DNA of 64,000 nt, taken from positions 384,001-448,000 of the forward strand of contig JBGASG010000001.1 of the NCBI GenBank assembly GCA_044229845.1, in the 5' to 3' direction. Shown here in pieces: positions 7,070-33,891 of this stretch. The position numbers and the translations under genes are program-made. The stretch's first letter is position 1. The number at the start of each line of letters is the position of its first letter. The notes beneath the pieces were generated by a model, which saw only the letters and a program-made list of their open reading frames with translations, searched no databases and was not told the DNA's origin. Source of the DNA: Candidatus Obscuribacteraceae bacterium. Lineage in GTDB: Bacteria > Cyanobacteriota > Vampirovibrionia > Obscuribacterales > Obscuribacteraceae.

Positions 7070-8104
7070 TTATTGAGAGATGCCAATGTCAGCTGGAGCC
7101 GTCACCGACGGCGTGTTTGAGAGGTTGAGCTGGGCGGCGGTATAGGCGTCGCGTAAATGTTTGCGACTGACGTGCGTGTAGAGCTGAGTGGTCACGACGC
7201 TCGAATGACCCAGCAACTCCTGAACAGAACGCACATCCGCTCCGTTCTCCAGAAGGTGCGTGGCGTAACTGTGCCTGAGCGTATGCGGGGAAAGCGGTTT
7301 GCGCACGCCGGCTTTCAGCGCCAGTCGCTTGACTATCTGCCAGACGACCAACCGGCTCAATCGTTTGCCTTGCTTGTCTTTGAAAATCGGCTGCGGCGTC
7401 AACGTCGGGCGCGCGCGTCCGCTGGACGGCTTGACTGCGGCACCGGCCGTTGCACCAGATGCGGTGCCGGACAATTCGGGCAAGAAACTGCATAAAGCTT
7501 CGATCGCCTTGGTGCCGATTGGAACTATGCGCTCTTTCGATCCCTTGCCGAAAACGCGCAGCGATCCTTCGCGCAAGCTCAAGTCTTTGACTTCCAGGCG
7601 AGTCAATTCCGAAACGCGCAGTCCGCCGCCGTAGAGCAATTCAAGAATAGCGCGGTCACGGGCACTTTCGGCGGCAGCGATGATTGCTTCAACTTCAGAG
7701 AGAGTCAAAACTTTCGGCAGCATCTTCTCGCGTTTGGGATTTGCCAGATCGAGAGTCGGATCGATGGCGATGTAATCGCGCAGTTTCAGCCAGGAAAACC
7801 AGCCGCGCAAAGTAGCCAGGTTGCGAGCCAGAGTTGAAGCTTTGGTGCCGGATGATTTGAGAACGCCCAGGTAGGCGGTCAGGTGCAGGCGGGTTACCGT
7901 CAAAAGTCCCTCAGGCAGCCACTTGAGAAACGCCTTCAAATCACGCCTGTAAGCGGCGATGGAATTATTTGATAGCCCGCGTTCCAGTGTCAGATATTTG
8001 ATGTACTCGTCCGCCCAGCGTCTCAACGAGGCATCAAATGCGGTGCGCTCGCCGGCCCTCGACCGGCGACTGTTGACATTACCCCTGGTGGCACTCTTTG
8101 ACAT
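7070..8104 (-). CDS. xerD: tyrosine recombinase XerD
   Basis: ERGLS.NSI.AYRRDL, GLRVSEL, GKGSKER, SPHTLRHSYATHLL, LLGHSS..TTQLY. Confidence 0.9.
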   Translation of the reverse strand: MSKSATRGNVNSRRSRAGERTAFDASLRRWADEYIKYLTLERGLSNNSIAAYRRDLKAFLKWLPEGLLTVTRLHLTAYLGVLKSSGTKASTLARNLATLRGWFSWLKLRDYIAIDPTLDLANPKREKMLPKVLTLSEVEAIIAAAESARDRAILELLYGGGLRVSELTRLEVKDLSLREGSLRVFGKGSKERIVPIGTKAIEALCSFLPELSGTASGATAGAAVKPSSGRARPTLTPQPIFKDKQGKRLSRLVVWQIVKRLALKAGVRKPLSPHTLRHSYATHLLENGADVRSVQELLGHSSVVTTQLYTHVSRKHLRDAYTAAQLNLSNTPSVTAPADIGISQ

Positions 8105-8172
8105 GCCACCATAATATGTCTATTGTATGAGCAAATCAATATGTACGGCTTTTTATCGGTCTTTCGCTCTGT

Positions 8173-9369
8173 TCAAGGCTTTTGAGGGAAGAGAAACCGG
8201 TAGGTCTTCTTGTTCATGTCGAAAGTCACGACTCCGTGGTGGCGCACCGGCACCACCGCCATGCCGGATTTGATCACCACATCGGCGGGGCTGACTGCTT
8301 CCGGCCAGTCTGTAGTCAGTTGCTCCCACTTCTCGCCTTTGAAACGCAGCAAGCCGTAAGGAATTGATGAAACCACCGGAGCGCCGGTGCTGTCGAAGTC
8401 CAATCCGGTGAACGTGGATGGCAGCAAGTCCCAATTCTCACGCTTGCTGAATGAGGATTCTTGGCGAGACAAGTCGTTGATGGCCGCCGGCAAAAGGGAG
8501 GGATCGGACAGCACCTTTTCGGCTTTGACTTTTGGAAAGTGTATGCCCTGCGCTCTGCAGTGGCACTGTAGCTTATGACCGTCATAGCTGTAGAGAGCAG
8601 CAGATCTAAAGCCCATGTGCGCGCCGCCGACAACAAACCAGAGTTTGCCGTCCGGACCGAACTTGAGGTCTGAGACAGGTTGCATGGCGTCTTGCAAGAC
8701 CTGGGTAGTTGCACCGGTGGCGGTATCAACATTGTTGACACCGCCGCCCCATTCACCGGCGGAGATGCCGTAATACAGCCGACCATCGCGCATCACCGCT
8801 CGCGACATGTCCCAGCGGTAGCAAAGCTTTTCTTTCTTGGCGCCGGCGGCGGGCAGAGTTCTCCACTTGCCGTTTTCATTGATGAATGTATCGTTCGCCG
8901 CGATCACCACCACAGTGCCGGCGTCGCCGGTCAGCAAGTGCTCTTCCGGCTTGGCTTGTAACGCCTTTTGCAACTCGTCCGGCAGCGGGTGTTTGCGCCA
9001 CTTTCCATTTGCACAGACGAAAGCGGCCAGTTTTTTGTCGGCTGTCGCGGCCAGGGCGTACTTATTTCCTTTGCCATCATCAGCGGTGCTGATAATGGCT
9101 TGCGCTCCATCAACAGAGACAGTCTGCAGTTGATTGCTTTTCAGATCAAGAAGTAGAGGCAGAGTGCAGTTGACTACTGCCGACTCGCCGAAGCTGGAGG
9201 CGGAGCGGACCGGCGAAGGCTCCACTGGTTCCATCGCGCCCCGGACCAGCTTATATTGCACGACCAGGCGCGCCCAGTCTCCATTGGAGTCGGCGGTAGC
9301 TCCCGATTGACTCACAGCTATCACCGCAGTGGTGATGGCAGCAATTAACAACGCGCGCGCCGACATCAT
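8173..9369 (-). CDS. secreted hypothetical protein (beta-propeller-like)
   Basis: Signal peptide, GEWGGG motif, beta-rich repeats. Confidence 0.75.
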   Translation of the reverse strand: MMSARALLIAAITTAVIAVSQSGATADSNGDWARLVVQYKLVRGAMEPVEPSPVRSASSFGESAVVNCTLPLLLDLKSNQLQTVSVDGAQAIISTADDGKGNKYALAATADKKLAAFVCANGKWRKHPLPDELQKALQAKPEEHLLTGDAGTVVVIAANDTFINENGKWRTLPAAGAKKEKLCYRWDMSRAVMRDGRLYYGISAGEWGGGVNNVDTATGATTQVLQDAMQPVSDLKFGPDGKLWFVVGGAHMGFRSAALYSYDGHKLQCHCRAQGIHFPKVKAEKVLSDPSLLPAAINDLSRQESSFSKRENWDLLPSTFTGLDFDSTGAPVVSSIPYGLLRFKGEKWEQLTTDWPEAVSPADVVIKSGMAVVPVRHHGVVTFDMNKKTYRFLFPQKP

Positions 9370-31106: not shown

Positions 31107-31372
31107 TTTCTTCTGAAGATCCAGTGCGCCTGGTAATCACAAAGTATTCGGTGAGCCAGAGCTTGATGCCGGGCGCCGTCTGCTAGCCTATTTGGAGGCA
31201 GTCACATTTGCCATGGCTGCTCAAAAAGCTGCGTGGGTTCGCGGGACTAAACGCCTCGCGAGCCAAAGCTAAACTTTGCCGAAGTACAGTGATGCTGGTG
31301 TGAGTGATTTGCAAACCGAGACAGGGAACGAAGTGTGTGAAATCGAAGGTCACTCGAGGAGGAGAGGCGGTT

Positions 31373-32353
31373 GTGATCAGGCAAGTAATCGGTGCGGTTT
31401 GCATCGCTCTGGCTGGATTGTTACCGATTGCCCAGGCACAAAACTACAGTCCGGGAGCGGTACCGGGAGCGGTACCAAGTGAACACTTTGGTGTCAACAC
31501 AGGTGGGGTCGGTGGCACCCCAAGCGGCATCCGAGCAAGAGGAAATCTTGCTTCACCAGATTATTTTCAGAGGCGGCAAGCTGCGGATGAGAACCAGCAA
31601 CAAAACATCCTAAATCTGACTGGGAAATACGGTCGCAAAAGAGCTAGCGAATACTTCCAGCAATGGCTCAACAAGCGCCACGGCACTGTAGCTGAACCTG
31701 GTCCCGCGCCAGAACCTGCTCCGGCGCCGAAAATACCGGAGGGAATGGTGTTTATGGGCGCAGGCGGCGCGTGGCCGCCAGGTGATGGTGGACCGGGAGA
31801 TAGGCCACCGGATCGAGTCTATGAAGATCCCGAGACTGGCGACATTGTCTGCATTTGGTACAGACCGGGCAAACCACCGATCGTGCTCAGAACGCCTGCC
31901 TACGACCCACTGGTAATCGAAGTCTTCTTTCCCAACGGCATGGCTACTCCGGGCTGGCTTGAACACCAGATTGCTACCTCGCCTGAATATTACATCCGAA
32001 TGCGAATTGACGAACTGAGGAGGCAACTTGGAGCAGCAGCAGGCTGGGTGACTATTTCTGTAGCCGTTATAAGAGGCAAGGATAAGGACGGAAAAGTCCG
32101 TTATTTTGTTGTTGTCAGCTCAAGTGAGGGGAGAGAATCGCTGAAAAAGATTACTCTCAACCCGTGGGAAACCTTTGTGGGCAACGGACAGGGTGACGCC
32201 GAACAGCAGATTGTTGGTGCGACCGCAAACCGTGGAGTAGAAGTTACTTCGATTGGAGCTACTCGGCCAATCTGTACGAAATGCCAGGGAACGATCTTGA
32301 GCGCACCGCACAGTCGTTTCGTGAGGCTGGCGACGCCAACGGTACAGAACTAA
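31373..32353 (+). CDS. secreted protein with C-terminal deaminase-like toxin domain
   Basis: GGAGAGG SD and GTG start; signal peptide; GDAEQ...IGATRPICTKC motif. Confidence 0.7.
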   Translation: MIRQVIGAVCIALAGLLPIAQAQNYSPGAVPGAVPSEHFGVNTGGVGGTPSGIRARGNLASPDYFQRRQAADENQQQNILNLTGKYGRKRASEYFQQWLNKRHGTVAEPGPAPEPAPAPKIPEGMVFMGAGGAWPPGDGGPGDRPPDRVYEDPETGDIVCIWYRPGKPPIVLRTPAYDPLVIEVFFPNGMATPGWLEHQIATSPEYYIRMRIDELRRQLGAAAGWVTISVAVIRGKDKDGKVRYFVVVSSSEGRESLKKITLNPWETFVGNGQGDAEQQIVGATANRGVEVTSIGATRPICTKCQGTILSAPHSRFVRLATPTVQN

Positions 32354-32498
32354 AATCTCTTCGAGAGTATTTCTCCCACGCTATGGGACGCAGGCACGCA
32401 GTGCAGGAAAGGTTTTGAGAGGAGACCCTCGGTAGAATGTGGACCGTGGAGCGTCTGTGGGAGAAGGTGTTCTCGAAGTAAGCACGACCATCGCAGAA

Positions 32499-33263
32499 TC
32501 AGTAGCTGACGAATCCGCCGCCGGGTAGGCTGACATATCCGGACCCGCCGCTGGAGTTGCCGGCACTAAATCTGGTGCTCCAGAAACCGTCTCCGCCACC
32601 GCCACCATTTCCGCCGCCACCGCCACCACTGCGAGATTGTGCTTGCGCGCTGGCGAACAAGTTGATCACGGGCGATGCATTGCCTTCGTAACCCGCATTT
32701 CCACTTGCGTCAAGCCAGTAATGACCGCGCGCAATCGGCACACCGGCGAGTTGGCTGAGGACATAGACTTCGCGAGTGGTCACGTTTCTGCCGTTGATGT
32801 AGATTCCGGTGGTTCCGCGTGAGGCATTGGGTGCAAGTGGTCCGAGATTGTGTCCCGGATACATAAATCCCGACGCAGCCCAGCCAATCTTGCCGTACAA
32901 CCCACTCTTGGCGTCGTACCAATACTTGCCTGCGCGAGCCTTAACCTTATATAGCGCTTGCAGTTCCGCCAGCTCTGCGCGAGTCAGTGCGCGACCATTG
33001 AAGATGACGTCGGTCAATTCAAGAGAAACATCAGCAGGTGCTGGGGCCGGACGCTGTGTTGTTTCTTCCTGAACTGGTGCTGCTCCAGGGTTTTGGGTTT
33101 GTTGGTTTACCGGCGCCGGGGACGGTGCTGGGACCGGTACCGGTTGCTTGTCGACTGCTCCGGTTTCGAACTCGTCTTCGAGCGTGCCGGCGCTAACCGG
33201 CACGTTTCCTGCCAGTCCCATTCCAATCCATATAAGTGCCGCAATAATGCTTGGCTTCAACAT
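32499..33263 (-). CDS. secreted protein with XLG/EDR4-like domain
   Basis: Signal peptide; NG..L...EL, G.YWYD..SGL.G, AS.G.TG.YINGR motifs. Confidence 0.75.
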   Translation of the reverse strand: MLKPSIIAALIWIGMGLAGNVPVSAGTLEDEFETGAVDKQPVPVPAPSPAPVNQQTQNPGAAPVQEETTQRPAPAPADVSLELTDVIFNGRALTRAELAELQALYKVKARAGKYWYDAKSGLYGKIGWAASGFMYPGHNLGPLAPNASRGTTGIYINGRNVTTREVYVLSQLAGVPIARGHYWLDASGNAGYEGNASPVINLFASAQAQSRSGGGGGGNGGGGGDGFWSTRFSAGNSSGGSGYVSLPGGGFVSY

Positions 33264-33477: not shown

Positions 33478-33891
33478 ATGTCAGAACACAACGTCGATCA
33501 TATTCAAATGAAGGAAAAGACGGATGGTGCCAAGATCGTAGACGCGATCGCGGCTGGGGATACAAACCGTCTGCAAGACGCGGTCAACGGATTGACCCCG
33601 GAAGAATTGAAACAAGTCTATGTCCAGATCAACCAGGAGAACGCCGCACGCCAGGCTCACGGACTCTTACCAGTTACTGTTATCGTCAACGATCAAGACC
33701 ATGACGGCAGAATTGATGTTACTGGTACGAATACCAAGACGGGTTTGACCATCGGTGCCGAAGGCAAGTCTGCGTTCCAGATGGCGATCGAGGAAGTAAT
33801 CCTCGATGACAAAAGCGCCAAGACTGCCGGAGGTGGTGTGGGTGGAAAATTCGAAGCCAGTGGCATCGGCGGTGGTGCCAAGGCTAGATAG
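33478..33891 (+). CDS. hypothetical protein
   Basis: 137-aa ORF with AGGAAGG SD; DQDHDGRID EF-hand-like loop. Confidence 0.7.
   Translation: MSEHNVDHIQMKEKTDGAKIVDAIAAGDTNRLQDAVNGLTPEELKQVYVQINQENAARQAHGLLPVTVIVNDQDHDGRIDVTGTNTKTGLTIGAEGKSAFQMAIEEVILDDKSAKTAGGGVGGKFEASGIGGGAKAR

Follow-up and report, generated by a model that had tools for sequence, protein, structure and literature searches.

The gene, its product and its neighbours

The window, the whole stretch of 64,000 nucleotides that was analysed, contains on its reverse strand a gene whose predicted protein, P0001, is composed of a predicted signal peptide, a stalk, a core of about 128 residues (85-212) and a C-terminal tail (Table 1). 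The core contains two tandem repeats of about 46 residues. The N-terminus has a basic start, a hydrophobic core and V-S-A at the likely cleavage site, where the closest named locus has A-L-A, and judging by its sequence P0001 is likely Sec-exported. The stalk is missing or swapped for other domains in homologues, and no cysteine is found in the protein. Searches of P0001 in Pfam and NCBIfam returned no family. All of the motifs that a preliminary description had quoted from this reading frame were present in it.

Table 1. Parts of the P0001 gene, with positions in the window
Feature	Position	Strand	Remark
Whole ORF, P0001, 254 aa	32499..33263	-	single copy in the genome; 105 near-length homologues
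Predicted Sec signal peptide, residues 1-25	33189..33263	-	inferred by eye and from hydropathy
Pro/Gln/Ala-rich variable stalk, residues 26-84	33012..33188	-	likely disordered
Core repeat 1, residues 85-130	32874..33011	-	predicted strand-helix-hairpin; VxxNG ... GxYWYD..SG..G..G
Inter-repeat linker, residues 131-151	32811..32873	-	near-invariant A-S-x-G end, common to XLG
Core repeat 2, residues 152-196	32676..32810	-	T..xxINGR, predicted helix 163-173, YWLD..G..G.EG
Core closing segment and predicted helix, residues 197-212	32628..32675	-	helix 121-131 of the model
Poly-glycine linker, residues 213-224	32592..32627	-	
Conserved Gly/Ser/aromatic C-terminal tail of about 30 residues, residues 225-254	32502..32591	-	

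The GC content of the gene (0.579) is close to that of the genome (0.555) and gives no sign of a recent transfer. No promoter-like site was found at the gene, and two terminator-like sites were detected against 1.3 expected. In 4 of 4 runs, RNA-library contigs covered the 3' half of the gene in short pieces (32335-32856, depth 2-7); these contigs do not show that the P0001 gene is transcribed.

Convergent with the P0001 gene lies an ORF of 349 residues (31304-32353, forward strand) whose C-terminal part contains D-A-E ... I-G-A-T-R-P-I-C-x-x-C. We take this motif to resemble that of deaminase-type polymorphic toxins, but with Asp replacing the usual His. Pfam and NCBIfam searches of this ORF were without match, and no ORF listed in the matching flank of the closest named locus (L001) resembles it. 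The divergent neighbour of 137 residues (33478-33891, forward strand) has a weak EF-hand-like loop (E 0.086), is kept beside the P0001 homologue in L001 and is covered by RNA-library contigs in one run. Directly downstream of that homologue, L001 has an ORF that looks integrase-like by eye (7663-8910, forward strand). The corresponding place in the window is taken by other genes, and the site appears variable.

Homology with plant XLG and EDR4-like proteins

The protein had initially been described as a prokaryotic homologue of a domain found in plant XLG and EDR4 proteins, and our searches bore this out. By BLASTP, P0001 matched an XLG3-like protein (35% over 152 residues, E 7e-20) and an EDR4-like protein (33% over 80 residues, E 6e-10). 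Profile-profile comparison of the bacterial and XLG sequences gave P=99.6 (E 1.8e-24, 124 columns). A bacteria-only profile of 38 bacterial-type sequences was run on proteins of 420-2000 residues, with 8000 candidates scored. It returned 37 long matches, namely 29 plant XLG-type proteins that carry G-alpha (E 8e-23 to 6e-14), one EDR4-like plant sequence (E 3e-15) and 7 bacterial fusions. The profile of a plant-like bacterial subgroup returned 14 matches (7 XLG-type, 6 bacterial-type and P0299, described below). In the reciprocal search, an XLG-only profile matched 1 of 55,420 six-frame stretches of the genome, which was the P0001 ORF (E 7.5e-20); the profile match to XLG and EDR4-like proteins, proposed earlier as a check, was significant, and for XLG it was so both ways. 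The XLG-only profile scored the real core at 75.5 bits, the reversed core at -0.2 and the best of 1000 shuffles at 4.4 (691 reported).

The conservation pattern was also compared. At 24 of the 128 core positions, the identical residue is more than 80% conserved in 337 bacterial-type and 30 plant rows; 9 of these positions are Gly and 4 are aromatic. For D117, S148, N157 and R159, conservation reaches 99-100% among the bacteria and 97-100% among the rows from plants, and W115, Y114, Y116 and W183 are kept in both. In XLGs the homologous segment follows the four CxxC motifs and precedes G-alpha, and the EDR4-like protein has it at the C-terminus. At the level of sequence, these results confirmed that the P0001 core and the XLG/EDR4-like segment are true homologues.

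P0001 itself is, by its domain make-up, a member of neither XLG nor EDR4. It shares with XLG1-3 (for example P0256 from Trapa, P0279 from Prunus and P0264 from Victoria) a colinear core of about 125 residues, with 33-44% identity in the best local alignments and with the 24 conserved positions, both repeats and the A-S-x-G-x-T linker in common. In contrast, the G-alpha domain (PF00503) detected in the XLG controls and the four-CxxC cysteine-rich region of the XLG rows are absent from P0001, and its signal-like N-terminus and Gly/aromatic tail set it apart, the tail being undetected in XLGs. The EDR4-like proteins (DUF3133; PF22910 plus PF11331; example P0284 from Cucurbita) have the homologous C-terminal domain, and share the motifs GGPC.G.I.P and NGRELH..D with the plant-like bacterial subgroup. 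However, P0001 has neither PF22910 nor the zinc ribbon PF11331, and it is distant from the single EDR4-like sequence compared (rank 322 of 367 domains, 41.5 bits). The protein had further been called stand-alone. This description holds for the lack of G-alpha and zinc-binding parts, but not beyond it, as the conserved tail is a second module and many relatives are fused.

The domain common to a large bacterial family and to plant XLG/EDR4-like proteins is real and apparently unnamed. In the parts consulted, reviews call XLGs plant-specific and present their N-terminal half only as a region rich in cysteine that bears localisation signals (PMC13185490, PMC8584482, PMC3718340), and a preprint sees in it a domain of unknown function that must be intact (bioRxiv 10.1101/2021.10.08.463358). 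In full-text searches and in the consulted parts of these four sources and of PMC6428781 and PMC12929061, neither the domain nor bacterial homologues are described; Urano 2016, Anantharaman 2011, Chakravorty 2015 and Wu 2015 may mention them. The XLG N-terminal half gains a defined domain of about 125 residues, with borders and a confident bacterial model, and one module links the XLG and EDR4-like immune regulators. More than 1000 diverse bacterial relatives exist, and their small size should make expression straightforward.

Fold, bacterial family and possible function

AlphaFold2 was run on a 38-row alignment, and 124 of the 173 residues reached a pLDDT of at least 90, while the last 38 were below 50. 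In the model the order of elements is strand-helix-strand-strand twice, then a closing helix. P0001 has two tandem VxxNG-helix-GxYWxD-G repeats linked by ASxGxT. Because repeat 1 and repeat 2 aligned with each other in hhalign at P=99.2 (E 1e-19) over 46 columns, the core is an internal duplication.

Searches for a known structure gave little. Only 3 chance matches (E 0.59) were returned from PDB by sequence, Foldseek gave no match in PDB or among the viral models of BFVD at E <=0.001, VIA-align found 0 of 48,161 chains at Z >=2, and the ESM Atlas search returned only unnamed clusters. The blanks of the structure searches are compatible with a new fold and no proof of one. When an XLG profile was run against PDB, the best 60 of 353 matches were all G-alpha chains; full-length XLG folded without an alignment had a mean pLDDT of 36, too low for a comparison with the bacterial model. 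The FHA phosphopeptide-binding domain was considered on account of the S-x-G-x-T...NGR of the core, which is presumably a look-alike of the FHA motif. It was rejected, as no Pfam match and no fold match was found and the model, unlike the FHA beta-sandwich, has three helices.

The family comprises 1,238 representatives (50% clustering, E <=0.001), a number that may include plant proteins; the best 150 were inspected. In a GTDB scan, 468 of 499 pattern matches were confirmed, and the 78 named loci among the best 80 of these 468 carry 16 phylum labels, one archaeon included. A hydrophobic segment within the first 45 residues was found in 222 of 253 bacterial-type homologues, and 35 have a lipobox-like motif. 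The family is patchy in its spread and, by its N-termini, probably mostly exported. No common family, only scattered weak matches, was obtained from Pfam over 30 members or from NCBIfam over 38. A search for viral or phage homologues found none, and among 72,556 plasmid records only one, that of a Gemmatirosa megaplasmid, has a family member.

The core is fused to many different partners. In the Ser/Thr kinases P0240 and P0288, it is C-terminal to a visible hydrophobic segment. Other fusions contain caspase (P0120, P0251-P0253, P0255), PDZ (P0183, P0155, P0159, P0200, P0227), S-layer homology (SLH; P0098, P0176, P0204), SnoaL (the P0031 group) and a cyclase-like domain (L071). P0202 (1419 aa), a TPR-CHAT protease-like protein, starts with the core and has neither signal peptide nor tail; this layout may be that of an intracellular sensor-protease. 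Spread over such fusion partners is typical of promiscuous recognition domains. PASTA, YARHG and FGE-sulfatase are promiscuous extracellular recognition domains of bacterial signalling proteins and can serve as functional analogues: their partners are comparable to those in the core fusions (membrane Ser/Thr kinases, caspases, cyclase, PDZ, SLH), but none matches the P0001 core in sequence or structure, so the likeness is one of analogy only.

Kinases carry the same core past the membrane, S-layer anchors also bear it, and CHAT fusions and plants use it inside the cell. On this ground we consider its most likely role, at about even odds, to be that of an exported module without catalytic activity, which would bind to a protein or peptide outside the inner membrane. 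Under this proposal, the core would stem from a self-pairing single-repeat protein that was fused in tandem; the single-repeat form is still seen in a few cyanobacteria. The core would act as a recognition module on a flexible stalk, and the aromatic tail would fold only on the partner or on assembly. Plants would have taken up the two-repeat form from a non-cyanobacterial source with loss of the signal peptide and tail, and their copy would be a cytosolic scaffold needed to place XLG at the cell periphery.

The conserved aromatic residues W115, Y114, Y116 and W183 also suit a lectin-like adhesion or sensing module that binds a surface glycan or polymer through Trp and Tyr, and the SLH fusions and the position beyond the membrane segment in kinases suit a surface ligand. 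We consider this unlikely, as the architecture of the plant copies and of P0202 is that of cytosolic proteins, the structure searches matched no solved lectin, and no glycan-utilisation neighbourhood is common to the best-identity loci. In the clustering of neighbourhoods over 87 loci, only genus-level synteny and generic families were obtained and nothing common to unrelated loci; because no gene neighbourhood is shared in this way, no link to a pathway or to immunity genes was drawn.

A point against a protein-binding module is that D117, S148, N157 and R159 could form a catalytic or small-ligand site. In another reading the core would be a small enzyme, with an active site built across both repeats from D117, S148, R159 and E193. 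All four of the latter are conserved in bacteria as well as in XLG, and two of them, S148 and R159, break the symmetry, repeat 1 having no conserved counterpart. On the other hand, the plant-like bacterial subgroup often has Asp at E165 and has lost H138, the conserved Arg is absent from the single-repeat forms, and no conserved metal-binding set, pathway context or enzyme fold match was found. An enzyme is therefore, in our estimate, very unlikely, and binding to a protein or peptide is still the reading we prefer for the core.

The C-terminal tail was examined separately. In 243 of the 253 bacterial-type homologues the protein ends with a tail 20-80 residues long, which contains 27% Gly, 13.5% Ser, 8% Asn and 7% Tyr. 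It is conserved though unfolded in the monomer model. These properties would fit a self-assembling surface or matrix subunit: stacked tails would form a beta-rich oligomer or fibre with the core on display, or would connect tail-bearing proteins to each other. In line with this, a zinc-ribbon protein encoded by a neighbouring gene in an Acidobacteriaceae locus ends in the tail but lacks the core. However, this tail-only gene is a single case, since all 3 tail matches in 301 genomes of the same phylum are on core-bearing proteins. The tail was also undetected in a search of plant proteins and is absent from some bacterial fusions, and nearby assembly or secretion genes are not conserved. Self-assembly is in our view quite unlikely. 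The four-copy complex prediction (score 0.01) was counted neither for nor against assembly.

The tail-only gene (L066, 3230-3757, forward strand) is directly upstream of a family member, and its product has a double zinc ribbon. Two other roles of the tail were rejected. Against a general sorting signal, no second convincing match to the tail was found in the genome (next best E 0.056). As an outer-membrane beta-signal it is contradicted by an archaeal locus and SLH proteins, which carry related tails with other ends.

Origin of the plant copies and XLG2 genetics

Among the best 80 of the 468 GTDB matches, the closest named locus (L001) is from Candidatus Obscuribacterales, with 93% identity, which makes this group the likely source of the window. 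Obscuribacterales are non-photosynthetic relatives of cyanobacteria and are not the plastid lineage. Of 61 relatives, only 2 have the P0001 gene, and they belong to the same genus. Across the phylum, 6 of 401 genomes were matched, including the source genome itself and one spurious match (L087 in genome G386, dropped for its four stops). In the oxygenic-type class (class inferred), 7 of 401 genomes were matched, all by frames of 120-160 residues with one repeat, in scans that scored only 7-8 candidates per genome and may miss weak copies. The single-repeat forms score 13-23 bits with the XLG profile (where scored), versus 71-89 for the top 26 two-repeat bacterial rows, and are without the conserved core Arg. 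With a signal-like N-terminus they occur in 8 cyanobacterial-phylum genomes. Those at L083 (1432-1809), L084 (1426-1788), L085 (1471-1860) and L089-L091 are small cyanobacterial proteins with such an N-terminus, one repeat and mostly a Cys-closed tail. From their architecture, the single-repeat cyanobacterial proteins are candidates for the half-domain ancestor type.

Two trees were built, a quick tree from 152 of 367 domain rows and a careful tree from 75 hand-picked rows, with single-repeat proteins left out of both. They rest on about 129 columns with long plant branches, and plants are represented by angiosperms only and a single EDR4-like row, the searches having yielded no algal sequence. 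In the quick tree, a branch with 99% SH-aLRT puts P0001 in a set of 109 bacterial rows and the plants in another set of 43 rows; in the careful tree the support of its group is 87/83. Plants fall in both trees in a subgroup that includes sequences of Bdellovibrionota, Myxococcota, Bacteroidota and Gemmatimonadota, away from P0001. The phylogeny that had been proposed earlier therefore does not bring P0001 to the plants, but a grouping of XLG with P0001 was unrejected in the AU test (p=0.18).

The preliminary description had raised an endosymbiotic origin of the plant domain. In favour of plants having obtained it from the cyanobacterial endosymbiont, the source genome is likely in the cyanobacterial phylum, oxygenic-type cyanobacteria do hold single-repeat homologues, and the AU test leaves XLG with P0001 standing. 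However, plants have the two-repeat form, which was absent from the 401 oxygenic-type genomes searched, where all 7 matches are single-repeat; because of this difference, an endosymbiotic transfer is not supported. The scarcity of the gene among close relatives and the separation of P0001 from plants in the trees point in the same direction, and we give this origin a very small probability.

The broader claim of a bacterial origin fared better, although the trees name no donor. We infer it from the far wider spread of the domain in bacteria, from the single-repeat forms, which are bacterial here, and from the named eukaryotic matches of both profiles, which are all flowering plants. A bacterial origin of the domain is plausible on these grounds; the trees settle no donor, direction or number of transfers.

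The domain could also have entered eukaryotes much earlier or more than once, instead of being acquired by plants specifically. P0299 (499 aa, JGI record) has an N-terminal MG-x-C, internal repeats, a copy of the domain that is EDR4-like and no signal peptide, and is possibly from a non-plant, microbial eukaryote. In the careful tree it groups with the EDR4-like row (98/91), and one clade of XLG, EDR4-like and P0299 fits the data: it was unrejected in the AU test (p=0.62), and the tree constrained to it beat the free tree by 6.7 lnL. The EDR4-like domain scores 84 bits against bacterial domains, higher than against any XLG, with no XLG in its top 30, which would also fit two separate transfers. 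On the other side, P0299 is one long-branch sequence for which a search returned no DNA context, and the named eukaryotic matches are flowering plants without exception. An early or multiple entry seems rather doubtful to us.

The following history is offered tentatively, at less than an even chance as a whole. An undescribed pseudo-symmetric fold would have arisen from a single-repeat secreted protein, become a two-repeat fusion and spread sideways among bacteria. Plants would have captured it from a non-cyanobacterial bacterium, its fusion with G-alpha would have given the XLGs, and a second use the EDR4 family. The 'nuclear export signal' of XLG would then be a structural helix of this domain, and in its mutants the module that keeps XLG2 together with G-beta at the cell periphery would be unfolded. 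The origin of XLGs is made testable by these results, which also provide a concrete alternative reading of nes387.

According to the consulted part of one study (bioRxiv 10.1101/2021.10.08.463358), Arabidopsis XLG2 nes387 is nuclear and non-functional, like the E293K and CxxC mutants, while the nls426 mutant works; the CxxC motifs of XLG2 end at C257. In our XLG rows, the distance from the last CxxC cysteine to INGRE was 122 residues in 34 of 36. From this spacing, INGRE of XLG2 should start near 379, which should put 387 at the start of the repeat-2 helix (163-173 in P0001). The nes387 mutation may therefore damage the fold of the domain instead of removing an export signal. The same counting gave 36 residues from the last CxxC cysteine to a conserved Glu in 29 of 29 XLG rows with a pattern match. 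This offset of +36 reproduces E293, which lies just upstream of the domain.
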